Of a stretch of 41,135 nt of DNA, positions 2,607 to 41,085 are shown piece after piece. A program made the translations under genes and the position numbers. Position 1 is the stretch's first letter. Every line of letters starts with the position of its first letter. The notes below the pieces were generated by a model, which had not been told where the DNA came from, ran no database searches, and saw only the letters and a program-made list of their open reading frames with translations. This stretch comes from a virus. The DNA lies in the UHGV virus genome UHGV-0094207, one strand, 5' to 3'.

Positions 2607-3144
2607 TACTGTTATCCTCGCAGCAGTAGTGCCGCCCCTCTGGGTCAGTAGATACATGCCCGCAGATATCGCATTCAATTCCCGGAAGCACTGATTCTGA
2701 CTGCTCTTTGATATGCAGTCGCGGTACACCATCTTTCGGCTCAGGCCATTCGCGCTGCTTGTTCATTGCCAGCTTTTCTACCATCGCCAGGGTAATCTGC
2801 TCATCAGTGATACCTGCACGACGTTGCGCATCCCATAACAGGAATTGGATGTCAGCCCATTCGCTAAGGTCGCCTGGATCCGCAGCAGCCTCGATCGCTT
2901 CTTTGGAAAGGTGCTTCAGCGAACCAACTGGACCGACATCGCCGAAAGTAGCCTGTGACCATACTGCATGCTCACGGCGTACCAGTTCGCGGACAATCAC
3001 TCCAGCAATCACCTTCACAGCATCAGCCATTGCGTAGCCGAGATTGCCGCCGTCGCTTTGTGCTGCTGCTTTGCTGAGTATTTCGCGTATCTGGTGCAGG
3101 CGATCGAGTGATACAGGACCGTGCGCCGGGTGGTTAGTTGTCAT
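2599..3144 (-). CDS. Hypothetical protein, possibly MazG/DUF550-like nucleotide pyrophosphohydrolase
   Basis: 181 aa; family assignment is from recollection of the DUF550 family only and is not verified. Confidence 0.35.
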   Translation of the reverse strand: MTTNHPAHGPVSLDRLHQIREILSKAAAQSDGGNLGYAMADAVKVIAGVIVRELVRREHAVWSQATFGDVGPVGSLKHLSKEAIEAAADPGDLSEWADIQFLLWDAQRRAGITDEQITLAMVEKLAMNKQREWPEPKDGVPRLHIKEQSESVLPGIECDICGHVSTDPEGRHYCCEDNSND

Positions 3145-3434
3145 GGTGTGCTCCAGTTATCTTCAATCGCCACGCCAAGTCGGTGTAGCCAGTCGGCCAG
3201 CTTCAGCATCGCTTCTCGTTCGCTTAATCTTTCTGGAAAGTCGGTAAGCTCGACCATCGGTTTAAACCGACCAAACGCATCGTTCTCAACAACAAGTTTT
3301 TGCTCAAGCGTGGTCTGCTTAACTTTGCTGTGATGCCGTAGCAGGTAAACTGACTTTGATTTTTTGGTTTCTGGGTCGTATTCGTAGGCAGTGAGTATCA
3401 TCTGGCTACCGCCGCGATTCGTTCCTCGCCACAT
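3141..3434 (-). CDS. Hypothetical early protein
   Basis: 97-aa ORF tightly packed in the minus-strand operon (4-nt overlap with the downstream gene). Confidence 0.35.
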   Translation of the reverse strand: MWRGTNRGGSQMILTAYEYDPETKKSKSVYLLRHHSKVKQTTLEQKLVVENDAFGRFKPMVELTDFPERLSEREAMLKLADWLHRLGVAIEDNWSTP

Positions 3435-3437
3435 ATC

Positions 3438-3896
3438 TCACTCCCCCTTCACGCCAATGCCAGCGGCGCGGTCAATGCGTTCAATTTCTGCCAGAATAAG
3501 AGCGCCAGCTTTTACCAGGTCGCGGCGTGCTCCTGATTGCTTCCACCAGTCAGGCGACCACGGCCAATGCGCTGGAGTGGAGAAACCTTGGTTGTGCGCA
3601 TGAATTGCGTAACAAGCCGCTGCATCTGCTAATTCGCTATTTTGATATGCGTTGTCATGTTCAGGAGTCCATCCTTCAACCGATTGTTGCCGCTGGCGTT
3701 CGGCTACCACATCCAGAATTGCGGGATTGAATGCGCGCGCCTCCAGTTCTGCTATGCGCTTCTCTGCGGCATCCAGTGCGCCAGTAATCACCTCAAACTC
3801 ATCCAAGCGAATGATTGGCGCGTAAACATCACCAGAGCCGCGCTTCAGTCTGATATCTGAAATAATCGCCTGAGCCTGCTTGTTGAGTGCTGTCAT
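3438..3896 (-). CDS. Hypothetical early protein
   Basis: 152-aa ORF in the operon; 4-nt overlap with the upstream gene. Confidence 0.4.
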   Translation of the reverse strand: MTALNKQAQAIISDIRLKRGSGDVYAPIIRLDEFEVITGALDAAEKRIAELEARAFNPAILDVVAERQRQQSVEGWTPEHDNAYQNSELADAAACYAIHAHNQGFSTPAHWPWSPDWWKQSGARRDLVKAGALILAEIERIDRAAGIGVKGE

Positions 3897-7622: not shown

Positions 7623-8249
7623 TTAAAGCTCGTACTGAACGCCTTTGACAACTCCAATGATCAGGCAATTACCGTTTATTGAAATGTTTGGATAGCGTGG
7701 ATTTAAGGGAACCAAGAACTTTTGAGGCCCATCGATGACGAGTTTTTTTACAGTAGCCTCGTTTGTCCCATCAAGTCTGGCTACGACTATCTTTCCATTA
7801 AGTGGCTCTGCATCAGGGTCCACTATGACTGTTGCCCCTTCAGGGATTGTCGGAAGACCATTAGGGTTTGTCATCGAATCACCTTTGACCTCCAATGCAA
7901 ATGAGCTATCACCTATCCTGAGTGATGTTTCTACCCACTTATCTACTTCACTGAAAACTTCTGCTGCTTTACATTCTGTAAACTGTCCAGCCTGAACCCA
8001 AGATATCACCGGAATCCTTCGCATCTTGGTTATCAGATTTCCTTCGAATTCAGTGCCATAGAGTATGTAATCAATTGATGTGTTGAAATACTTTGCAAGT
8101 TTCGAAAGTGACTCACCGCCTGGCACATTAATGTCTTTTTCCCAATACCCAACCGCCACATCGCTAACACCACAGAACTTACCCAGTTCTTTCTGCGAAG
8201 TTTTGGTTACGCGCCTGAGAGCTTTGATGCGCTGACCGACAGTTTCCAT
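7623..8249 (-). CDS. cI: CI-like prophage repressor (HTH plus S24 LexA-like peptidase)
   Basis: 208 aa. N-terminal HTH 'QKELGKFCGVSDVAVGYWEK'; Ala-Gly cleavage site in 'WVQAGQF'; catalytic 'KGDSM' and 'VKKL'. Confidence 0.85.
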   Translation of the reverse strand: METVGQRIKALRRVTKTSQKELGKFCGVSDVAVGYWEKDINVPGGESLSKLAKYFNTSIDYILYGTEFEGNLITKMRRIPVISWVQAGQFTECKAAEVFSEVDKWVETSLRIGDSSFALEVKGDSMTNPNGLPTIPEGATVIVDPDAEPLNGKIVVARLDGTNEATVKKLVIDGPQKFLVPLNPRYPNISINGNCLIIGVVKGVQYEL

Positions 8250-13455: not shown

Positions 13456-14166
13456 GTGTATGGAGCGCAAAGAAGCATGAATCAACAAGACCTGAATTTT
13501 GTCAGAATAGAATTGCGCCGCGCGCTACCTGACCTCTCTGGGGGAACAAAAGGGCAGCTTGAGGCTTTCAGTGAACACCCACCAGCAGATAAAAATGCCA
13601 CCCCGCGCCGTGGAATTCATCTCGTCGAACTCGAAGGAGATAAGGGGCCACGCTTTGTTAACTCGCTTTCCGCGCCACTGTATGTGCTGGAAACACGCAG
13701 CCGCCGTAGGCCAATGCCGCCGATAAAAGATGCGGAATTTGAGTCAGCGCCGTGGCGTAGGGCAGTGTCCGCGCTTAGTGGATACCAGCAGGCCTGGTTG
13801 CGGTACTGTTACGGTTTTGACCTTAGCTATAAGCACCAGGTGATGATGTGTGAATACGTCTGGAAAACTTATCAGAAATGCCTGGGTGATAATTCCCTTC
13901 AGGAGCGCGTAGTAAAGAAACTGATTGGCCTGGTATGGCTGGCAGGGCAGGAAATTGCCGCAACCAGAAATAATGAAACCTATAAAGACTATGCTGGTGC
14001 AGCGTTGGCCCGCATGGTTAGCGTTGACCGTTCGACATGGTTGCGTGTCTATTCAGGGCACTGGGCTGGGTTAAAGGCCGCTTTTACCCAGCTTGATGAA
14101 TCTGCGCTGGCCATGGCTCTTGAATACTATGAGGAAGAAGACGCCCTCAAAGTGGCAGAAATGTGA
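13456..14166 (+). CDS. Late-gene antiterminator Q
   Basis: 236 aa in the canonical position before the lysis cassette; GTG start in the ORF track, ATG 'MNQQD' at 13477 is an alternative. Confidence 0.65.
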   Translation: MYGAQRSMNQQDLNFVRIELRRALPDLSGGTKGQLEAFSEHPPADKNATPRRGIHLVELEGDKGPRFVNSLSAPLYVLETRSRRRPMPPIKDAEFESAPWRRAVSALSGYQQAWLRYCYGFDLSYKHQVMMCEYVWKTYQKCLGDNSLQERVVKKLIGLVWLAGQEIAATRNNETYKDYAGAALARMVSVDRSTWLRVYSGHWAGLKAAFTQLDESALAMALEYYEEEDALKVAEM

Positions 14167-31916: not shown

Positions 31917-32627
31917 ATGCGTCAGAAAACCATCGATGCGATTATGGCGCATGCTGCAGCAGAATATCCTCGTGAGTGTTGCGGCGTGGTGGCGCAGAAA
32001 AGCCGTGTTGAACGTTATTTTCCGTGCCGGAATCTTGCCGCGGCGCCGGAGGACAATTTTGTCCTTTGCCCCGAGGACTATGCAACTGCTGAGGACTGGG
32101 GAACGGTGATCGCCATCGCTCACAGTCACCCTGATGCCACGACGCAACCGAGCGAACTGGATAAAGCGCAATGCGATGCGACGCTTTTACCCTGGCATAT
32201 CGTGAGCTGGCCGGAGGGGGATTTACGTACCATCCAGCCGCGTGGAGAACTGCCGCTGCTGGAGCGTCCGTTTGTGCTTGGTCACTTCGACTGCTGGGGG
32301 CTGGTAATGAGCTATTTCCGGCAAACTCATGGTATCGAGCTCCATGATTACCGGGTGGATTATCCCTGGTGGGAAAACGACTATCCGGACAACTTCTATC
32401 AGGATTGCTGGTATGAGTGCGGATTCCGTGAATTCGACGGGCCACCGAAACCAGGGGATATGGTGATCATGCAGGTCCAGGCTGATAAGTGGAACCACGC
32501 GGGAATCCTGCTGGAGGGTAATATGTTGCTACACCACCTGTACGGTCATCTGAGTCAGCGCGTGCCGTATGGCGGTTACTGGCAAGAAAGAACGATGAAG
32601 ATTCTACGTTATAAATCTCTGTGCTAA
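31917..32627 (+). CDS. Tail assembly protein K (JAB/MPN plus NlpC/P60)
   Basis: 236 aa; 'ECCGVV...IAHSHPD' JAMM-like motif and 'HFDCWGLV' NlpC/P60-like Cys. Confidence 0.8.
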   Translation: MRQKTIDAIMAHAAAEYPRECCGVVAQKSRVERYFPCRNLAAAPEDNFVLCPEDYATAEDWGTVIAIAHSHPDATTQPSELDKAQCDATLLPWHIVSWPEGDLRTIQPRGELPLLERPFVLGHFDCWGLVMSYFRQTHGIELHDYRVDYPWWENDYPDNFYQDCWYECGFREFDGPPKPGDMVIMQVQADKWNHAGILLEGNMLLHHLYGHLSQRVPYGGYWQERTMKILRYKSLC

Positions 32628-32655
32628 CCTTTGCTCAAAACAAAGGAGCGAAACC

Positions 32656-33006
32656 ATGAAATTTGTATTAAGTCTATTGTTATTATCGACATTATTTAAT
32701 TCATACGCAGGAACTGTAGACGATTATCTTGAACGTCATTCTGAAATAAAATCAAATTCTGTTGCTGAAACTTATGTGAGCCATTACGCCTTTATGATTG
32801 CGATGATGGAAGCACAACAGAAGCATAATAGATCTGATAATGAGTTTATCACTGGATTACTTTCAAATAATGGTGATGTATATGCAAGATTAGCAGTTAG
32901 AAAACTTGCCAATGATTGTTTAACGCAAAGGGATATTGGTCAGTCCGGAGAGTTAAATAATAAAGAATGTAATATTGTGATTAGAGCAAATAAATCACAA
33001 CAATAG
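32656..33006 (+). CDS. Hypothetical secreted protein (AT-rich moron between K and I)
   Basis: 116 aa; signal peptide 'MKFVLSLLLLSTLFNSYAG'; strongly AT-rich relative to neighbours. Confidence 0.5.
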   Translation: MKFVLSLLLLSTLFNSYAGTVDDYLERHSEIKSNSVAETYVSHYAFMIAMMEAQQKHNRSDNEFITGLLSNNGDVYARLAVRKLANDCLTQRDIGQSGELNNKECNIVIRANKSQQ

Positions 33007-33010
33007 CCAA

Positions 33011-33619
33011 TTGAAAGTCGAGGGTACGATGCAAGAGGTAATGACGCGAATTGAACTAGGTGGAGAGCCGGGTAAGATCTTTGGAAAGATACACCATCGC
33101 CTTATCAATAAAGTATCAGAAGCTGGAACGGCCCTCGCTAAAACTATCCCCGGCTTTGAAAGTTATATGATTAGCAGTAAAAGCCGTGGGCTAACATTTG
33201 CCATCTTCAAAGGTAAAAAGAATATTGGAGTTGACGACCTTGGCTTTCCCGTTACAGGTGAAGTAATCAGAATTGTGCCTGTAATCATTGGGGGCAAAAA
33301 AGCCGGGGTGCTGCAAACAGTTTTAGGTGCCGTGTTGGTTGCCGCTGGTGCCGTGCTTAGCTTCACCCCATGGGCTGCAGCCTCACCATTTTTATATAAA
33401 TTTGGTGCTGCAATGATGCTAGGCGGAGTTGTACAGATGCTTTCTCCACAGCCATCTGGCATAGCCAGCAAACAAAGTGCAGATAACCGTGCATCCTACG
33501 CATTCGGTGGAGTTACGAACACCGCAGCTCAGGGTTACCCGGTCCCGCTTCTTTATGGTCGTCGGCGAATCGGCGGAGCGATTATTTCTGCCGGAATTTA
33601 TGTCGAAGATCAGCAGTAG
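33011..33619 (+). CDS. Tail assembly protein I
   Basis: 202 aa between K and J; 'MQEVMTR' at 33029 is an alternative start. Confidence 0.75.
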   Translation: MKVEGTMQEVMTRIELGGEPGKIFGKIHHRLINKVSEAGTALAKTIPGFESYMISSKSRGLTFAIFKGKKNIGVDDLGFPVTGEVIRIVPVIIGGKKAGVLQTVLGAVLVAAGAVLSFTPWAAASPFLYKFGAAMMLGGVVQMLSPQPSGIASKQSADNRASYAFGGVTNTAAQGYPVPLLYGRRRIGGAIISAGIYVEDQQ

Positions 33620-33637
33620 ATAACACACCTTTTTCAG

Positions 33638-33660
33638 GCCACCTTCGGGTGGCTTTTTTT
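33638..33660 (+). terminator. Terminator-like hairpin between I and J
   Basis: gccacc-ttcg-ggtggc hairpin followed by seven T, 11 nt before the J start. Confidence 0.6.
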
Positions 33661-33671
33661 ATGGGCGCAAT

Positions 33672-36600
33672 ATGGCTAAAGAAAAAGTGTTAAAGGGCCG
33701 CAAGGGCGGCAGCTCCAGTTCCAGAACCCCTACCGAACAGCCTGATGATCTGCAATCTGTAGCGAAAGCCAAAATCCTCGTTGCGCTTGGCGAAGGTGAA
33801 TTTGCAGGACAATTAACCGGCAAAGATATCTACCTGGACGGAACGGCGCTGGAGAACGCCGATGGCTCCCAAAACTTCAGCGGCGTGACGTGGGAGTTTC
33901 GCGCGGGAACGCAGGCGCAAAAGTATATTCAGGGTATTCCCGGTACCGAAAACGAAATCAGCGTGGGAACTGAGGTATCAAGCGCCACAGCCTGGACGCG
34001 AACGTTTACCAATACGCAGCTTTCGGCAGTTCGCCTGCGTCTGAAATGGCCATCGCTTTTCAAACAGGAGGACGACGGTGATCTGGTCGGTTACTCGGTC
34101 AATTATGCGATTGACCTGCAGACGGGCGGCGGCGCATGGCAGACGGTACTCAATACCAGCGTGACCGGAAAAACAACGTCTGGTTACGAGCGCAGCCACC
34201 GTATTGATTTACCGCAGGTTGGAAGCACCTGGACAATCCGCCTGCGTAAGATAACCTCTGACGCCAACAGCGCGAAGATCGGCGACACGATGACGCTGCA
34301 GAGCTTCACTGAGGTGATTGACGCCAAGTTACGCTATCCAAACACAGCGTTACTCTACATCGAATTCGATTCCAGCCAGTTTAACGGTTCTATCCCGCAG
34401 ATCTCCTGCGAGCCCCGCGGTCGTGTTATCCGCGTTCCAGATACCTACGACCCTGAAACCCGTATTTATAGCGGTACATGGACCGGTGCGTTTAAGTGGG
34501 CATGGACGGATAACCCTGCGTGGATTTTTTACGATCTGGTTGTTTCTGACCGGTTCGGCCTCGGTCACCGTTTGACTGCCGCTAACATCGATAAATGGAC
34601 GCTTTATCAGGTTGCCCAGTATTGTGATCAGATGGTGCTAGACGGCAAAGGGGGCAACGGTACCGAACCACGTTATACCTGCAACGTGTACATTCAGGAC
34701 CGAAACGACGCTTACACAGTCCTGCGTGATTTTGCTGCTATCTTCCGTGGCATGACCTACTGGGGCGGTGATCAGATTGTTGCGCTTGCCGATATGCCGA
34801 GAGATGTGGATTACGCTTACACCCGCGCTAACGTTATCGACGGACGCTTTACCTATTCCAGCAGCACGACAAAAACGCGGTATACCACGGCGCTGGTTTC
34901 CTGGTCTGATCCGGGTAACGCCTATGCAGATGCGATGGAGCCGGTGTTTGAGCAGCCTCTGGTGGCCCGGTACGGATTTAATCAGCTGGAAATGACAGCC
35001 ATCGGCTGTACCAGGCAATCAGAAGCGAACCGAAAGGGGCGCTGGGGTATTCTCACCAACAACAAGGATCGCGTTGTTTCGTTTGATGTTGGCCTGGACG
35101 GAAACATTCCGCAGCCGGGATACATCATCGCCGTGTCAGACGAGCTTCTGTCCGGCAAAGTTATGGGCGGCCGCATCAGTGCTGTTAACGGTCGCGTGAT
35201 TAAACTTGACCGCGTAGCTGATGCAGCAGCAGGCGATCGCCTTATTCTCAATCTTCCCTCCGGTGCGTCACAGAGCAGGACTATTCAGGCGGTTAACGGG
35301 GAATCAGTCACAGTCACCACGGCATACAGTGAGACACCACAGGCCGAAGCTGTATGGGTGGTTGAGTCAGATGAACTCTACGCCCAGCAGTATCGTGTTG
35401 TCAGTGTCTCCGATAACAATGATGGTACCTTCTCGATTACTGGCGCATGGCACGATCCGGATAAATATGCCCGTATTGATACCGGAGCCATCATTGACCA
35501 GCGGCCGGTGAGTGTGATCCCGCCGGGTAACCAGTCGCCGCCTGCGAACATCGTGATCAGCTCCTTTTCAGTGGTGCAGCAGAATATTAGCGTCGAAACG
35601 ATGCGCGTGAGCTGGGACCAGGCGCAGAACGCTATCGCCTATGAAGCGCAATGGCGCCGCAACGACGGGAACTGGGTTAACGTGCCGCGCAGCTCCACCA
35701 CGTCATTTGATGTATCGGGTATTTATGCCGGGCGCTACCTCGTGCGTGTGCGCGCTATTAATGCCTCTGAAATTTCCTCTGGCTGGGGCTACTCCGAAGA
35801 GAAAACGCTGACGGGCAAGGTGGGAAATCCGCCGAAACCTGTCGGCTTTGCGACAACGCCGATCAACTGGGGGATTCGCCTGAACTGGGGATTCCCGGCT
35901 AATACCGGGGACACGCTGAAAACGGAAATTCAGTACACCGCGAACAGTGATTTCTCAAATCCCCTTTTGTTGTCGGATGTGCCTTATCCGTCTGCCGAAT
36001 ACACCCAACTGGGTTTGAAGGCTGGTCAGGAGTTCTGGTACCGCGCGCAGCTGGTAGACAGAACGGGTAATGAATCAGGGTGGACCGACTGGGTTCGTGG
36101 TGAATCTAATGCGAATGCTGACGACTACCTGGGCGATATTGCTGATGACTTCCTGACATCTGCCGACGGTGACCGCCTGACCGGCGACATTGATACCAAT
36201 CTTGAAGCCGCATTGCAGAACGCGCTGGCCAACCATGCAACCGTGGAACACCAGTGGGCGCAGTACGGCGAGGTACGCGCGGATATTCTGGTGGTTAAAA
36301 CGACCATTGCGCAGGTCGATAAGGCCATGGCTGAAATGTCGACGCAGGTGCAGGCGCAGTTCAATGATGTGACTGCTGCGCTGGAAGATAAGCTCACCGC
36401 CGTGGTTGATGCGACCGGGGCATCTGCAATTTACACCCTTAAAACCGGAGTTCGAATAAACGGTGTGATGTATAACGCCGGGATGTCGATCGCGGTGCTG
36501 GCCGAAGCGGGTAAGCCAGTGGTCACTCGTGTCGGGTTTAACGCAAACCAGTTCGTCCTGATGAGTGGCAGCGGTGATACGCAATATTCACCCTTTGCTG

Positions 36601-36848
36601 TTGTTAATGGTCAGGTGTTTATCAGCGATGCGTTTATTCAGAATGGAAGTATAACAAGCGCCAAAATTGCTAACGCCGCAATCAACAATGCGAAAATCTC
36701 AGGTTCTATCTGGTCAGAAGGTTACAAAGTTGCAAATCAGGGGGGGTGGTGTCTTTCTAAAGCCGACAACAATCTTTCCTTTACGGGGCCGGAAGGTCGT
36801 GTGCTTGTGCAGATTGGTAAACTAACAGGAGTGGCTCCCAATGTCTGA
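33672..36848 (+). CDS. Host specificity / tail tip protein J
   Basis: 1,058 aa; 'RVIRVPDTYDPETRIYSGTWTGAFK' parallels the lambda gpJ segment 'RILQVPSNYNPQTRQYSGIWDGTFK'. Confidence 0.9.
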   Translation: MAKEKVLKGRKGGSSSSRTPTEQPDDLQSVAKAKILVALGEGEFAGQLTGKDIYLDGTALENADGSQNFSGVTWEFRAGTQAQKYIQGIPGTENEISVGTEVSSATAWTRTFTNTQLSAVRLRLKWPSLFKQEDDGDLVGYSVNYAIDLQTGGGAWQTVLNTSVTGKTTSGYERSHRIDLPQVGSTWTIRLRKITSDANSAKIGDTMTLQSFTEVIDAKLRYPNTALLYIEFDSSQFNGSIPQISCEPRGRVIRVPDTYDPETRIYSGTWTGAFKWAWTDNPAWIFYDLVVSDRFGLGHRLTAANIDKWTLYQVAQYCDQMVLDGKGGNGTEPRYTCNVYIQDRNDAYTVLRDFAAIFRGMTYWGGDQIVALADMPRDVDYAYTRANVIDGRFTYSSSTTKTRYTTALVSWSDPGNAYADAMEPVFEQPLVARYGFNQLEMTAIGCTRQSEANRKGRWGILTNNKDRVVSFDVGLDGNIPQPGYIIAVSDELLSGKVMGGRISAVNGRVIKLDRVADAAAGDRLILNLPSGASQSRTIQAVNGESVTVTTAYSETPQAEAVWVVESDELYAQQYRVVSVSDNNDGTFSITGAWHDPDKYARIDTGAIIDQRPVSVIPPGNQSPPANIVISSFSVVQQNISVETMRVSWDQAQNAIAYEAQWRRNDGNWVNVPRSSTTSFDVSGIYAGRYLVRVRAINASEISSGWGYSEEKTLTGKVGNPPKPVGFATTPINWGIRLNWGFPANTGDTLKTEIQYTANSDFSNPLLLSDVPYPSAEYTQLGLKAGQEFWYRAQLVDRTGNESGWTDWVRGESNANADDYLGDIADDFLTSADGDRLTGDIDTNLEAALQNALANHATVEHQWAQYGEVRADILVVKTTIAQVDKAMAEMSTQVQAQFNDVTAALEDKLTAVVDATGASAIYTLKTGVRINGVMYNAGMSIAVLAEAGKPVVTRVGFNANQFVLMSGSGDTQYSPFAVVNGQVFISDAFIQNGSITSAKIANAAINNAKISGSIWSEGYKVANQGGWCLSKADNNLSFTGPEGRVLVQIGKLTGVAPNV

Positions 36849-37158
36849 TTTTGGATTTGCCTCATGGGACACTAACGGCGTCCCGAATAACTATGGCATT
36901 AAACCTGTAACCGTGGTGGGTATCATCGATCTTGCTTTAGGTCAGAAAACGGGAAGCTACCAGTTCAGTCTGGAGCCTGGTTTAAAGGTTGGTTTTGCGG
37001 TTGGTACTCTGGAGGATAAAGGGACAATAAGTTATACAGACAAAAGAAGCATTATTGCATCTGGAAACACCATAACAATACAGCCTTCAGGTAGTGATGG
37101 GATTAATGATTACCCGGCAGTCAAAGTGCAGTTAATCGTTTTTGCGGAGACTGCGTAG
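36841..37158 (+). CDS. Hypothetical protein downstream of J
   Basis: 105 aa; 8-nt overlap with J; lower GC than J. Confidence 0.4.
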   Translation: MSDFGFASWDTNGVPNNYGIKPVTVVGIIDLALGQKTGSYQFSLEPGLKVGFAVGTLEDKGTISYTDKRSIIASGNTITIQPSGSDGINDYPAVKVQLIVFAETA

Positions 37159-37833
37159 ATGGCTAAATATGGCGCATTGATTTCATTACCTAACGGGAAC
37201 CCTTTTATCACGCCTGATTCCACACCAATGACGCTTTACCGGAAAGTCACTGTAAACTCAACTTTTGGAGGGGATTTTAACAGTGCTTCGGCGTCCGTGA
37301 CTGTCGACGGTCAGAAGGGAGGGATTGCATTTGCACGAACCAGCGCCCCGGCGAAGATATCAGCTTCAAAAAGTGGCAACACGTTCAGTGTTGATGCGTC
37401 TAATTACAGAGGTTCGGCTTTCGTGCTGGAGGCGTATTTTTTTGCTATATATCCGCTCACCCTTCCTGCCTGGGGTGTGGCTATATGGGATGCCGAAGGG
37501 ACACTGGTACTTACGAATGAGTCCCGGGTATTAAGCGACCTTACAACTATAGGCTCACCCGGCGCTGCAACGGGTGGGCTTAACATCGATACATACATGG
37601 CAGGCAAATGGGCCGTAAATCCGATGGGGCTGGGGTCTGTTCTTCTGCATGCTGGTTCAGCACCTGGCGGACAACCAATAATCCAGCCTGTGGATGTGGG
37701 AACGGGGTGCTTCAATGAAGGTGTAGGAACAAGAATAAAAGGACTTTCATCAACAACAGCAAGTGGTTCTTCAGTCGGAACGACGAATAGCGGGATTGTA
37801 ATAACGGCGATAAACACAGCCGCATATGATTAA
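37159..37833 (+). CDS. Hypothetical protein downstream of J
   Basis: 224 aa, Gly/Ser/Thr/Ala-rich; contiguous with the preceding ORF. Confidence 0.4.
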   Translation: MAKYGALISLPNGNPFITPDSTPMTLYRKVTVNSTFGGDFNSASASVTVDGQKGGIAFARTSAPAKISASKSGNTFSVDASNYRGSAFVLEAYFFAIYPLTLPAWGVAIWDAEGTLVLTNESRVLSDLTTIGSPGAATGGLNIDTYMAGKWAVNPMGLGSVLLHAGSAPGGQPIIQPVDVGTGCFNEGVGTRIKGLSSTTASGSSVGTTNSGIVITAINTAAYD

Positions 37834-38240: not shown

Positions 38241-39335
38241 ATGTCAGCAGGAACCTTAACCCTGACGAATAACTCTGCTGCGGTCGCTGGCAGCGGGACC
38301 GCGTTTACCACCGAGGTGGCAGCCGGAGATTTTATTGTTGTTACTGTCGGTGGCATTCCCTACACGCTCCCGGTTAAATCTGTGGAAAGTGGTACAGCGT
38401 TGACGCTGGTCAGTAACTTTACCGGGCCAACACAATCTGGCGCGGCCTGGTCAGCTGTTCCTCGTGTGGCGCTGAATATGGTCACCGCGGCGCTGGTGGC
38501 GCAAAGTGCTGAAGCGCTGCGAGGCCTGAATTACGACAAACAGAACTGGCAGCAGGTTTACAGTGGTGCTGGCAGCATCACCGTGAAGTTACCGGATGGC
38601 ACTACATTCACCGGGCCGTCATGGAAATATCTTTCTGACAACCTCGCGGATAAAGTAGACAGCAAAGATCCCCAACTAGGTACTGTGAATGGGAAAACAG
38701 GCGGAACCATTTCCACCCCAGTTTATAGCGTTGGAGCTAGTGGGGTAGTAACTCAGGACTCAAGTTATGGTGAGTGGTCATTTCTTTATCCATCCACTTT
38801 AAAAAAGATGGCCTACGGATTTTGTGAGAATTTTGGTGATCTGGTTTTTGTAACTACCGTTGCAACAAATACCGGGACAGAAAAATATTTTGCTATGCGT
38901 CAGAACGGTAATTTCAATACACAAGGAAATATTACCTGCGTCTCGCTGACCCAGACTTCAGATGCCGATAAAAAAAACGACATAAAACCCATTGAAGACG
39001 CACTTGGTAAAGTGATGGCTCTAAACGGTGTAACCTTCAACTGGAAGGACAGCGGCCTGCCATCTTCCGGTGTGATTGCCCAGGAGCTTATAAAAGTCCT
39101 GCCGGAGGCTGTCGGATCAGTCTTTGAAGATCATGATCAGTATGAGTCTGTTGAAGAAATCAATGCGGGCGGCGAGACGACAATCACCCGTCATCTTGTT
39201 AAAAAACGAGATGACAGCAAGCGTAGCTATACGGTGGAATATTCTGGCGTCGTTGCACTCTGTCTTCAGGCAATAAAAGAATTGAATGAAAAAGTTGACA
39301 GTTTGCTGGAACAGTCATCTGCCGTTAAAAATTGA
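38241..39335 (+). CDS. Tail fibre protein with C-terminal S74-type intramolecular chaperone domain
   Basis: 364 aa; N-terminal 'MSAGTLTLTNNSAAVAGSGTAFTT' fibre-type start; C-terminal 'DIKPIEDALGKVMALNGVTFNWKD' chaperone-like segment; GC drops in the distal half. Confidence 0.65.
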   Translation: MSAGTLTLTNNSAAVAGSGTAFTTEVAAGDFIVVTVGGIPYTLPVKSVESGTALTLVSNFTGPTQSGAAWSAVPRVALNMVTAALVAQSAEALRGLNYDKQNWQQVYSGAGSITVKLPDGTTFTGPSWKYLSDNLADKVDSKDPQLGTVNGKTGGTISTPVYSVGASGVVTQDSSYGEWSFLYPSTLKKMAYGFCENFGDLVFVTTVATNTGTEKYFAMRQNGNFNTQGNITCVSLTQTSDADKKNDIKPIEDALGKVMALNGVTFNWKDSGLPSSGVIAQELIKVLPEAVGSVFEDHDQYESVEEINAGGETTITRHLVKKRDDSKRSYTVEYSGVVALCLQAIKELNEKVDSLLEQSSAVKN

Positions 39336-39463: not shown

Positions 39464-39706
39464 TTAATCTGAAACCAGCCACATATCAGCCTCTTCAAAC
39501 ATTTCCTGAACAGTACGGCTTATCTGCTCCTTCTCATGCTTGCTGGCGTCAGTGTTGATCGCTGGCAGTGTCATCATCGGTTTAACCCGGACATCAGCAT
39601 CGGGGAAGATCCGGTGAACCCTCCTGGTCAATTCGCCCAGAATGATATCTTTTGCACGGGGCAGACCATCAAAATTCCTTTTGTCATAAACGAGTTCCAC
39701 GAACAT
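39464..39706 (-). CDS. dinI: DinI-family DNA-damage-inducible protein
   Basis: 80 aa; 'GELTRRVHRIFPD' and 'EKEQISRTVQEMFEEADMWLVSD' align with DinI as recalled. Confidence 0.8.
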   Translation of the reverse strand: MFVELVYDKRNFDGLPRAKDIILGELTRRVHRIFPDADVRVKPMMTLPAINTDASKHEKEQISRTVQEMFEEADMWLVSD

Positions 39707-39721
39707 TGCTTATTGCCTCTT

Positions 39722-39770
39722 TACTGGATGGATATACAGTATTTATACTGTGTTTTTATGCGGTATTCAA
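39722..39770 (-). promoter_or_regulatory. SOS promoter with LexA box upstream of dinI
   Basis: On the minus strand: TTGAAT (39765-39770), 17 nt, TATAAA (39742-39747), then TACTGTATATCCATCCAGTA (39722-39741), i.e. CTGT-N8-CCAG. Confidence 0.55.
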
Positions 39771-39781
39771 GAGAGGGCGTG

Positions 39782-40024
39782 ATGATGCCACGACGCAGCG
39801 ATATTGAAATAGCCTGGTATGCTTCGATACAGCAGGAACCAAATGGCCGGAAGACCGTCACCACGCAACGGTTTGTCCAGGAACTGAGCAAGGTTAACTG
39901 GAACTGGACAATGAAGCAGGCCAACGAATGGATCGAGTGGTATGTGACAACCTTCCGCGATGTATCAACGCAGGAAGGGGAGAACCGTACCTTTCAGCTG
40001 TTCAATCCAAACGGAGGACTATAG
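39782..40024 (+). CDS. Hypothetical protein, first gene of the divergent SOS operon
   Basis: 81 aa; purine-rich RBS before 'MMPRRSD'; stop 2 nt before the UmuD'-like start. Confidence 0.45.
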   Translation: MMPRRSDIEIAWYASIQQEPNGRKTVTTQRFVQELSKVNWNWTMKQANEWIEWYVTTFRDVSTQEGENRTFQLFNPNGGL

Positions 40025-40026
40025 CC

Positions 40027-40416
40027 ATGGGCTTCCCTTCACCTGCCAGTGATTACGTTGAAACAAGGATCTCCCTCGATCAGCAGCTAATCAGCCAGTC
40101 CGCAGCGACTTATTTCATGCGGGCATCGCGTTCACATTTCAGGGAAGGGATAATCCAGGGGGCGCTGCTTGTTGTTGATGCGTCACTTTCTCCCTGTGAT
40201 GGCTCGCTGCTGATATGCGCGATAGACGGAGAATTCAGGATCAAGCGATATCGGACTCATCCTCAGCCCCACCTGGTTAATCTGGAGAACGGGAGAAGGG
40301 AGGCGCTGCCAGCAGATGATGACGGTTACAGTTCTGCACCCGCTATATTCGGGGTGATCACGTACATCATTAATGATGCCAGGAACGCGGAGTTTGATGA
40401 CTGCCCGGTGATGTAA
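40027..40416 (+). CDS. UmuD'-like S24-family protein lacking the N-terminal pro-segment
   Basis: Starts 'MGFPSPASDYVETRISLDQQLI', which matches UmuD directly after its Cys24-Gly25 cleavage site; conserved Lys in 'GEFRIKRY'; the Ser-region is altered ('ASRSHF'). Confidence 0.65.
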   Translation: MGFPSPASDYVETRISLDQQLISQSAATYFMRASRSHFREGIIQGALLVVDASLSPCDGSLLICAIDGEFRIKRYRTHPQPHLVNLENGRREALPADDDGYSSAPAIFGVITYIINDARNAEFDDCPVM

Positions 40417-41085
40417 TCATATTGGCTGTATTAGTTCGGAGCCCTGATGTTTCACATTCCCGACGGCACGCGTCACGGCATGCCATATAAATTTATCAGC
40501 CGGCACGGAACCGTCGGCTGCAATTTCCGCCGCTTCTTTCCCTCCAATGTCCTGCCTCATCCATTCTCGAGCAGCATCTGGTGACAGTACCAGTGGCCGC
40601 CTATCGTGAATATCTACCAGTCCTTTGTCTGCAGCAGCCGTCACTATCAGGAATCCTTCTGCTTCATCTCCACGTTCGAATGGTGTGCTGCCGATCGCCG
40701 CCATGAATATCGGCTGGCCATCGGCTCGATGAATGAAGTAGGGCTGCTTTTTGTCACCTTCCTTTTTCCATTCATACCAGCCATCAGCAAAGCAAATGGC
40801 ACGACCATGCTGCCAGAGTGGTTTGAACATTCTGCTGGTGGCCGCAGTTTCAGAGCGTGCGTTAATTAGCGGTGGTTTATCCCACCATCCGGGGGCGTAT
40901 CCCCAGATAACTGGATCAAGATGGAGTTTCTCGTCACGTTCGCTCAGAAGCAGAACTTTGGTGCCTGGCGCGACATTAAAACGTCCGATCGGTTCGGGAT
41001 CGTAAGGGATATCGCGTTCTGCTTCTTCAGTAAGCAGAGCGAGATAGTCTTCACGCGTCATTGATTGTGAAAAGCGTCCACACAT
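40417..41085 (-). CDS. yedK: SRAP-family protein (YedK-like abasic-site processing protein)
   Basis: 222 aa starting 'MCGRF' (catalytic Cys2 hallmark of SRAP/YedK); stop codon directly abuts the UmuD'-like stop. Confidence 0.8.
   Translation of the reverse strand: MCGRFSQSMTREDYLALLTEEAERDIPYDPEPIGRFNVAPGTKVLLLSERDEKLHLDPVIWGYAPGWWDKPPLINARSETAATSRMFKPLWQHGRAICFADGWYEWKKEGDKKQPYFIHRADGQPIFMAAIGSTPFERGDEAEGFLIVTAAADKGLVDIHDRRPLVLSPDAAREWMRQDIGGKEAAEIAADGSVPADKFIWHAVTRAVGNVKHQGSELIQPI

Follow-up and report, generated by a model that had tools for sequence, protein, structure and literature searches.

A small AT-rich gene between tail genes K and I

UHGV virus genome UHGV-0094207 was analyzed over its whole length of 41,135 nucleotides (the window), with attention to a small gene on the plus strand that lies between the tail genes K and I. 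Its open reading frame (ORF) runs from 32656 to 33006 and comprises 116 codons beginning with ATG, coordinates and a length that the window's ORF list reproduces exactly as a preliminary description of this DNA had given them. The same description had credited the gene with a ribosome-binding site of its own, which can be read directly from the sequence as a Shine-Dalgarno element (AAGGAG) at 32643–32648 (+), 7 nt before the ATG. The left flank is the tail-tip assembly gene K (31917–32627, +), with a Prok-JAB domain of the JAB/MPN type (PF14464, E = 2e-20), an NlpC/P60 domain (PF00877, E = 1e-21) and a match to phrog_30 (E = 8.7e-132). The right flank is the tail assembly gene I (33029–33619, +; phrog_32 ‘tail assembly protein’, E = 1e-70), for which the ORF list had proposed a TTG start at 33011; alignment with homologues places the start at ATG 33029, behind GAGGG. 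Considering the ORF together with its family match, base composition, substitution pattern and homologues at the same position, we hold it to be highly probable that this is an exchangeable accessory (‘moron-type’) gene, that it sits in a K–I hot spot of an HK97-like lambdoid prophage from an Enterobacter-group host, and that it encodes a predicted Sec-exported, soluble, all-alpha protein of ~11 kDa, probably locked by a disulfide and belonging to the family PHROG 13007.

Base composition sets this cargo gene apart from its surroundings. A GC content below that of both neighbours had been noted by eye in the preliminary description, and a windowed calculation bears this out: the ORF has a GC content of 0.316, and of 0.214 at third codon positions (GC3), as against 0.543 and 0.595 for K and 0.539 and 0.588 for J, with a GC3 of 0.41 in gene I. 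Among all 351-nt segments in the 41,135 bases, which average 0.512 with a standard deviation of 0.042, the cargo ORF is the one with the lowest GC content. On the evidence of this foreign composition the gene is a horizontal acquisition, and the AT-rich region is a likely target of H-NS. Three antisense sigma-70-like promoter motifs also lie inside the ORF on the minus strand (32691–32866), and these are probably spurious promoters of the kind that AT-rich acquired DNA usually contains.

An extreme AT content and three internal promoter-like motifs would equally suit an AT-rich spacer or a decaying remnant in which an ORF occurs by chance, but the selection analysis effectively refutes such a reading, to which we attach next to no weight. 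In pairwise comparisons between alleles, the ratio of nonsynonymous to synonymous substitution rates (dN/dS) for the mature part of the protein is 0.04–0.10 at dS values of 0.28–1.3, and it follows that this is a genuine gene under purifying selection. Full-length homologues in at least nine enterobacterial genera, the good Shine-Dalgarno element and a confident, consistent fold prediction argue in the same direction. For the same pairs of alleles the dS of the cargo gene is close to that of K (for example, 0.28 versus 0.35 and 0.67 versus 0.63), and this similarity, combined with the purifying selection, indicates that the gene has travelled with the tail module for a long time and is no fresh insertion. 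GC3 nevertheless remains at 0.17–0.35 in every cargo allele, despite this long residence.

The encoded precursor is predicted to begin with a Sec signal peptide of the signal peptidase I type, MKFVLSLLLLSTLFNSYA (32656–32709, +), with cleavage before GTVDDY (SYA/GT). This call was made by a heuristic analysis of the n-, h- and c-regions together with the −3/−1 rule, and it agrees with the clear signal peptide of the preliminary description. The n-region is MK, the 12-residue hydrophobic core FVLSLLLLSTLF reaches a maximum Kyte-Doolittle value of 2.7, and the c-region NSYA, which places small residues at −3 and −1, is followed by GT. The layout is kept across the 36 homologues that were aligned, being recovered by a motif script in 35 of them and by inspection in the last (P0037). 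Throughout this set the N-terminal ~18 residues vary and the mature part is conserved, opening with a (G/K)T(V/L)xD(Y/F) motif. The window protein contains neither a lipobox cysteine nor a second hydrophobic segment, and its first 87 residues are free of cysteine.

Removal of the predicted signal peptide would leave a periplasmic mature protein of 98 amino acids (32710–33003, +), with a mass of ~11.1 kDa, an isoelectric point of 5.9 and an all-alpha fold. AlphaFold2, run on the alignment of 36 sequences, returned five concordant models out of five, with predicted local distance difference test (pLDDT) scores of 84–88; most of the mature part scores 95–98, falling to 82–87 around residues 91–100 and at the C terminus. 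The models comprise two short N-terminal helices (residues 21–27 and 29–32), a long helical hairpin (35–57 and 62–94) and a C-terminal helix (102–114). Exactly two cysteines occur in the mature part of all 35 homologues parsed by script. In the window protein these are C88, modelled in the long helix, and C105, modelled in the last one, and they presumably form a disulfide that would stabilize the protein in the periplasm.

Profile comparison aligns residues 3–113 with positions 6–115 of the 116-position PHROG 13007 profile (E = 1.8e-32), which is the sole library match of the window protein, carries the annotation ‘unknown function’ and is matched by all clades of the family (E = 1e-19 to 9e-45 for the other members). 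Neither Pfam nor NCBIfam holds a match for the window protein, and a Pfam search with all 36 family members likewise gave no credible match. The defence models of PADLOC-DB 2.0 gave no match at E values up to 10, a profile search of PDB sequences returned a chance match only (E = 0.29), no relative was found in BFVD, and Rfam had no match to the region. A literature search found nothing on the PHROG 13007 protein family or on the K–I slot. No catalytic or cofactor motifs are present in the protein, which for this reason most likely acts by binding something, and no metal-ligand motifs occur beyond the two cysteines.

The K–I junction as a cargo site

The preliminary description measured the insertion against lambda, which it said has no gene between K and I. 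This is correct for lambda itself, where the two genes overlap with nothing in between, but it fails as a baseline, since the interval is filled in nearly all close relatives. The K–I interval was examined in 80 IMG/VR contigs selected for a K at least 96% identical to that of the window, a sample taken from at least 574 IMG/VR matches. In 77 of the 79 scorable contigs the interval holds 320–1500 nt of cargo, and a bare junction of ~40 nt occurs in the remaining two. Because an occupied K–I junction is the norm in the HK97-like lineage, lambda is the wrong comparison, and the presence of an insertion is in itself not unusual.

The cargo in these loci was classed by a heuristic classifier of signal peptides, lipoboxes and transmembrane segments. 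By this measure at least one exported or membrane protein is encoded in 72 of the 77 filled loci, and at least one lipoprotein in 59. PHROG 13007 itself provides the cargo in five loci of the census. Exclusively cytoplasmic cargo was found in only four of the 77, three of which encode toxin-antitoxin-type domains (SocA/Panacea pairs in two, Fic/Doc in one). Several unrelated lipoprotein families, one of them YecR-like, occupy the interval corresponding to window positions 32628–33028 in the IMG/VR loci L052–L131, one locus combines a KilA-N protein with a lipoprotein, and one carries a membrane protein resembling HK022 gp20.

Named phages show the same exchangeability, with other genes at K–I in phages whose K 3′ ends are ~90–93% identical in DNA. 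A lipoprotein of 137–148 amino acids occupies the position in mEp390 (gp17) and Fostie, two lipoproteins in LMessi, and a 74-residue single-pass membrane protein in HK106 (gp18), whose counterpart in HK022 (gp20) is likewise K–I cargo. Like the window protein, these cargo products are directed to the envelope and are of unknown function. The window protein has no sequence relationship to any of them, however, and is predicted to be a soluble signal-peptidase-I substrate, whereas they are lipoproteins or membrane proteins. Taken together, the unrelated genes of mEp390, Fostie, LMessi and HK106 and the occupancy of the close relatives establish K–I as a cargo site, and it is this slot, rather than the gene within it, that is the more notable; taken alone, the gene is ordinary.

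Within gene I, the first 300 nt have a GC content of 0.40–0.47, and the GC3 of 0.41 for the whole gene compares with 0.58–0.60 in K, L and J. Identity to relatives ranges from 64 to 100% for gene I and varies independently of that of K (94–100%). This intermediate composition and independent identity suggest that a mosaic joint may lie inside or after I and not at the cargo stop codon.

The preliminary description called the gene a moron. In the classic definition of Juhala and Hendrix, as restated by Cumby et al., a moron is an extra gene of deviant composition, equipped with a promoter and a terminator of its own and expressed while the prophage is repressed (PMC3594210). The window gene is extra in that sense, with K and I overlapping in lambda and the relatives being empty in two of 79 cases and otherwise holding mostly unrelated cargo. 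Its composition is likewise deviant (GC and GC3 of ~0.54 and 0.59 being typical of K and J). The insertion of a foreign-composition, exported-protein gene with its own ribosome-binding site was therefore rightly recognized, but there is no terminator directly downstream in the window copy, and a scan found no promoter belonging to the gene. The further label of lysogenic-conversion or exclusion factor is one suggested by the position of the gene and the export of its product.

At the left junction, an RNA hairpin (32622–32650, +) covers the last codon and the stop codon of K (UGC UAA) and holds the Shine-Dalgarno element of the cargo gene in its 3′ arm. Its minimum free energy is −8.3 kcal/mol (z = −3.1), and none of 200 shuffled sequences folds as well. 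The K stop (TGC TAA) followed by CCTTT...AAAGG recurs in 48 of the 80 relatives, before at least four different cargo genes, and mEp390, Fostie and LMessi share this left junction with the window, including the hairpin that provides the Shine-Dalgarno element; HK106, in contrast, diverges from the K stop onward and lacks the motif. The hairpin is kept in all PHROG 13007 cargo alleles that were examined. In the most divergent of these (L019, 53% identity) the stem is longer and of different sequence, with a free energy of −20.4 kcal/mol, and such extension by other sequence suggests that the structure is under selection. We infer that the hairpin is a translational-coupling element from K to the cargo gene, and it may in addition serve as a homologous flank for cassette exchange.

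On the right, the 22 nt between the cargo stop codon and the start of gene I contain no hairpin. The first terminator-like element after the cargo lies between I and J, where the hairpin GGCCACCTTCGGGTGGC (33636–33655) is followed by a T-run (whole element 33636–33662, +). All HK97-like phages inspected have an identical hairpin in the I–J interval, as seen in mEp390, HK106 and E. kobei. Most other cassettes, among them the lipoprotein or gp20-like cargo of mEp390, Fostie, LMessi and HK106, end in a terminator hairpin of their own, a second copy with six T residues that follows the cargo just before I. The window cassette does not: this pre-I copy is absent from the window, from the E. kobei copy and from that of E. 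coli 21AR0133, and the first terminator past the cargo is consequently beyond gene I. An own terminator is present in allele L019 and in the myovirus-borne relatives of the gene. Paired GGCCACCTTCGGGTGGC copies were located at ~3140–3220 and 3835–3860 in locus L001 and at 2018–2038 and ~2675–2700 in locus L016, and a related motif is present twice in 26 of 48 relatives. The copies may act as recombination boundaries for the exchange of cassettes.

A consensus scan of the ~650 nt from 32000 to the cargo ATG found no sigma-70-like site on the plus strand at the threshold applied, although a weak or non-sigma-70 promoter could escape such a scan, and none was seen by eye in the 3′ end of K. Since neither promoter nor terminator of its own was found and the prophage encodes a Q-like antiterminator (13456–14166), the anatomy predicts that the gene is expressed with the late tail operon. 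In this model, the cargo gene would be transcribed within the Q-antiterminated late tail operon, and a ribosome ending at the K stop codon would melt the hairpin that hides the cargo Shine-Dalgarno element, coupling translation of the cargo to that of K. We regard this combination of late transcription and K-coupled translation as an evenly balanced proposition. What the hairpin suggests is late-operon expression, either in place of expression from the repressed prophage or in addition to it.

Family distribution and genomic contexts

Members of PHROG 13007 are few. A single-sequence search of 5.8 billion proteins gathered five clusters at 90% identity, and among 1.8 billion proteins the family has 15 representatives at 50% identity, a profile search yielding 39 clusters. 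Every named member is from the Enterobacterales (Enterobacter, Kluyvera, Escherichia, Shigella, Salmonella, Citrobacter, Raoultella, Serratia, Pantoea and Kosakonia), and all are annotated as hypothetical. None of 50,697 deposited phage records carries a family member, including by tblastn against phages, and PLSDB plasmids gave no match to the family. The window-type allele is present in one of 5,426 complete E. coli genomes, where the distant myovirus-type allele P0040 has no match, and a scan of 185,579 GTDB species representatives with a sub-clade alignment found the myovirus-type clade in three. As far as these searches reach, the family is rare, restricted to Enterobacterales and borne mostly by prophages.

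Homologues of the window clade are found at this K–I position in 18 IMG/VR contigs as well as in genomes of Enterobacter, Kluyvera and E. coli, with the gene order K – cargo – I – J in all 18 loci and in every genome context of this clade that was examined. The preliminary description had proposed that an absence of homologues at this position in other prophages would count against its reading; they are present. More distant members (24–29% identity) are found in contractile-tail prophages of Raoultella, Citrobacter koseri, E. coli, Pantoea and Serratia. Here the order is a PhiTE-type tube gene, tape measure, Dit-like, Pam3 gp18-like and E217 gp41-like genes, the family member, a PF18352-type gene, sheath initiator and baseplate J. 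We take the E217 gp41-like protein to be the baseplate hub and the PF18352-type protein to be the central spike, which would make this slot, just before a putative central-spike gene, analogous to K–I. The myovirus-borne members have a GC content of 0.41–0.45, against 0.45–0.57 in their flanks, and a strong terminator hairpin stands directly 3′ of the family member in all three myovirus-type loci scanned. Small signal-peptide ORFs usually precede the contractile-tail member, often belonging to PHROG 3443 (unknown function, ~115 amino acids, conserved cysteines), an arrangement noted at L009 (4660–5004), L015 (4672–5004), L021 (4612–4959), L024 (4111–4455) and L010 (4423–4887). For this reason the junction between the E217 gp41-like and PF18352-type genes seems to be another hot spot where exported cargo accumulates.

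The family also occurs away from tail genes. One metagenomic member (L026, 2440–2799) adjoins genes for an Arc-like repressor, two antirepressors (Bro-N/P22 Ant-type) and a DDE transposase, a context that, going by its gene content, is an immI-like region and not a tail module. In Kosakonia oryzendophytica and Enterobacter sp. EA-1, PHROG 13007 is a chromosomal orphan with no tail genes within 4–5 kb (L028/L029, 5001–5360; L049; L050). The Kosakonia orphan is placed between a YjhX-family toxin gene and zinT, and the protein of the related strain EA-1 (P0048) departs from the rest of the family over its N-terminal portion, which looks frameshifted. Its occurrence in contractile-tail, Arc/antirepressor and orphan contexts shows the cargo gene to be autonomous, able to work without K or I.

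This autonomy and the signal peptide between them exclude the protein as a part of the tail. Its position between two tail-tip assembly genes and its co-divergence with K at similar dS might have suggested a tail-tip component, structural or needed for assembly, that is missing from lambda, but we rate this as very improbable. The cleavable Sec signal peptide that we predict would take the protein out of the cytoplasm, where tails assemble; relatives whose K is at least 96% identical have unrelated genes in the slot or, in two of 79 cases, an empty junction; and the same family recurs with another type of tail as well as away from tail modules altogether.

Somewhat less improbable, though still doubtful, is a late-lytic helper in the periplasm of the dying cell, which could mask receptors or entry factors and so spare progeny from loss to debris or to cells already infected, tune lysis, or restrain peptidoglycan hydrolases such as the NlpC/P60 peptidase of K. 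The place of the gene in a late operon with a Q-like antiterminator and no promoter or terminator found of its own, the hairpin that ties its Shine-Dalgarno element to the K stop codon, and the adjoining K gene with its cell-wall peptidase domain would all fit such a protein. The wider family fits it poorly, however, because the myovirus-borne relatives have no NlpC/P60 neighbour, a tape-measure SLT domain is present in only two of the loci examined, and orphan chromosomal copies cannot serve a lytic cycle. Likewise, the terminators of the myovirus copies and of L019 make sense only for transcripts that are not antiterminated, and most relatives have different cargo in the slot. A more specific candidate, an immunity or inhibitor partner of the K NlpC/P60 domain, found no support, the distant relatives being without an NlpC/P60 neighbour.

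Possible functions in the periplasm

The reading that we favour, though tentatively, is that of a periplasmic phage-entry exclusion factor. In this model, the cargo protein in the periplasm would hinder infection by other phages, acting in superinfection exclusion at the step of wall crossing or DNA entry. Its target would be an incoming tail-tip or ejection protein, or else a host factor, in the periplasm or inner membrane, on which entry depends. Three considerations lead us to prefer interference with entry: the precedent of HK97 gp15, the occurrence of phage resistance among prophage accessory loci, which commonly encode it (PMC7067206), and the mostly envelope-targeted nature of the cargo in this slot. 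The resemblance to T4 Spackle or HK97 gp15 would be one of logic and not of ancestry.

The HK97 gp15 moron is a small, YebO-like inner-membrane protein that blocks DNA entry by other phages; it is encoded between the tail chaperone and tape-measure genes, is described as possessing a promoter and terminator of its own, and is made by the prophage (PMC3594210). Like the window cargo, it is an extra gene of foreign composition in an HK97-type tail operon. The window protein differs in its predicted soluble periplasmic nature and in the absence of a recognizable promoter or terminator. In size and layout it resembles T4 Spackle (Sp), a periplasmic protein made as a 97-residue precursor with a Sec signal peptide and two cysteines in its mature part. 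Spackle is helical, inhibits the tail lysozyme gp5 and blocks penetration of the cell wall by superinfecting phage. Homology between the two was considered and rejected, comparison showing no relationship in sequence or fold.

Exported exclusion proteins encoded near receptor-binding or tail-tip genes offer a second point of reference. Llp of T5 is an exported lipoprotein that blocks the receptor and is encoded near receptor-binding or tail-tip genes. Cor, from phi80, N15, HK022 and mEp167, is an exported exclusion protein whose gene lies near receptor-binding or tail-tip genes (PMC3594210). Both are outer-membrane lipoproteins matched to the receptor of their own phage (FhuA), whereas the window protein is without a lipobox. 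A receptor-matched model of the Cor/Llp kind is weakened by the linkage of one allele to differing J proteins. Gene J of the window, for the central tail fibre or tip (33672–36848, +), encodes 1058 amino acids, and its homologues carry PF24801 (FNIII-A_GpJ) and PF09327 (Phage_Tail_Tip). In E. kobei, a 98%-identical cargo allele is linked to a J of 1240–1276 amino acids, whose C-terminal region is ~27% similar to that of the window.

Several observations weigh against entry exclusion. The anti-phage action is itself argued from position, predicted export and precedent, the signal peptide depends on heuristic prediction only, and the protein has no detectable similarity to any known exclusion or defence protein. 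The linkage of the same allele to J proteins with different C termini suggests that it is unmatched to the phage's own receptor specificity. The low dN/dS gives no sign of the diversifying selection common in arms-race proteins. Neither a promoter nor a terminator belonging to the gene was found in the window copy, whose anatomy thus leaves protection of the lysogen, the setting in which exclusion usually operates, unsupported. Finally, the family is very rare (1/5,426 E. coli genomes, 0/50,697 phage records and 3/185,579 GTDB species).

An alternative is that the periplasmic protein would be a lysogenic-conversion factor unrelated to phages, one that improves host fitness, for example by helping the cell to withstand envelope stress or host defences, to handle metals or to colonize. 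A housekeeping-type interaction would agree with purifying selection that is strong and shows no diversification, and the Kosakonia orphan, standing away from tail genes, implies a benefit independent of the phage late operon. There is also a precedent in SodCI, a periplasmic superoxide dismutase whose gene, sodC, lies in the Gifsy-2 tail-tip cluster along with a gene for a Lom-like outer-membrane protein. We nonetheless think this alternative unlikely, though it deserves to be taken seriously: the window protein resembles no known virulence, stress or metal-binding family, it has no metal-ligand motifs other than two structural cysteines, its gene has no promoter of its own that we could find, and the family is rare, patchy and fixed in no pathogen lineage.

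The Gifsy-2 case is similar to the window slot in that exported proteins, the periplasmic SodCI and the outer-membrane protein of ailT, are encoded as cargo between tail-tip assembly genes of a lambdoid prophage. It differs in its junction, which is M–L and not K–I, and in that sodC is a gene for a known enzyme that lies on the opposite strand as its own transcription unit, with no sequence relationship to the window gene.

Returning to phage-entry exclusion, a broader and more speculative proposal can be framed, which we consider unlikely to hold in full. Under this proposal PHROG 13007 would be the first known case of a phage-entry blocker that is soluble and periplasmic, traded as a cassette between the tail-tip cargo slots of unrelated siphovirus and myovirus prophages. 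The K–I junction of HK97-like prophages, filled in ~97% of relatives and mostly with uncharacterized lipoproteins, would be a large untapped reservoir of envelope-level exclusion factors, and its hairpin and terminator boundaries would be the sites of exchange.

Ever since the sequencing of HK97 and HK022 it has been clear that lambdoid tail operons can contain accessory genes, and these have repeatedly proved to be exclusion or virulence factors (HK97 gp15, lambda lom, Gifsy-2 sodCI), to which the present cargo adds an uncharacterized, predicted periplasmic family that matches no known structure. Interest in the locus is modest and stems from the near-universal occupancy of K–I with conserved boundaries, the recurrence of the family in an unrelated tail type, and a confident fold without a known neighbour. 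The interchangeable cargo of the 77 filled relatives amounts to an easily cloned panel for studying how superinfection is excluded at the envelope of Enterobacter, E. coli and Klebsiella-type hosts, and such a panel is relevant to host range in phage therapy.

The remainder of the window has the content of a complete lambdoid prophage, with an integrase (50–1363), a CI-like repressor (7623–8249), the Q-like antiterminator given above and a holin (14773). Near the right end, a UmuD-like gene (phrog_811) lies beside a minus-strand phrog_1599 gene of unknown function (39536–40416 and 40417–41085). Directly after J (36841–37833) there follow genes for a 105-residue phrog_557 ‘outer membrane protein’ and a 224-residue phrog_425 ‘membrane associated protein’ of the moron category. 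From near 37600 the GC content drops to ~0.36, over the end of the phrog_425 gene and the spacer before the side tail-fibre gene (38241–39335). Relatives carry DUF6453 and DUF8377 proteins downstream of J instead.

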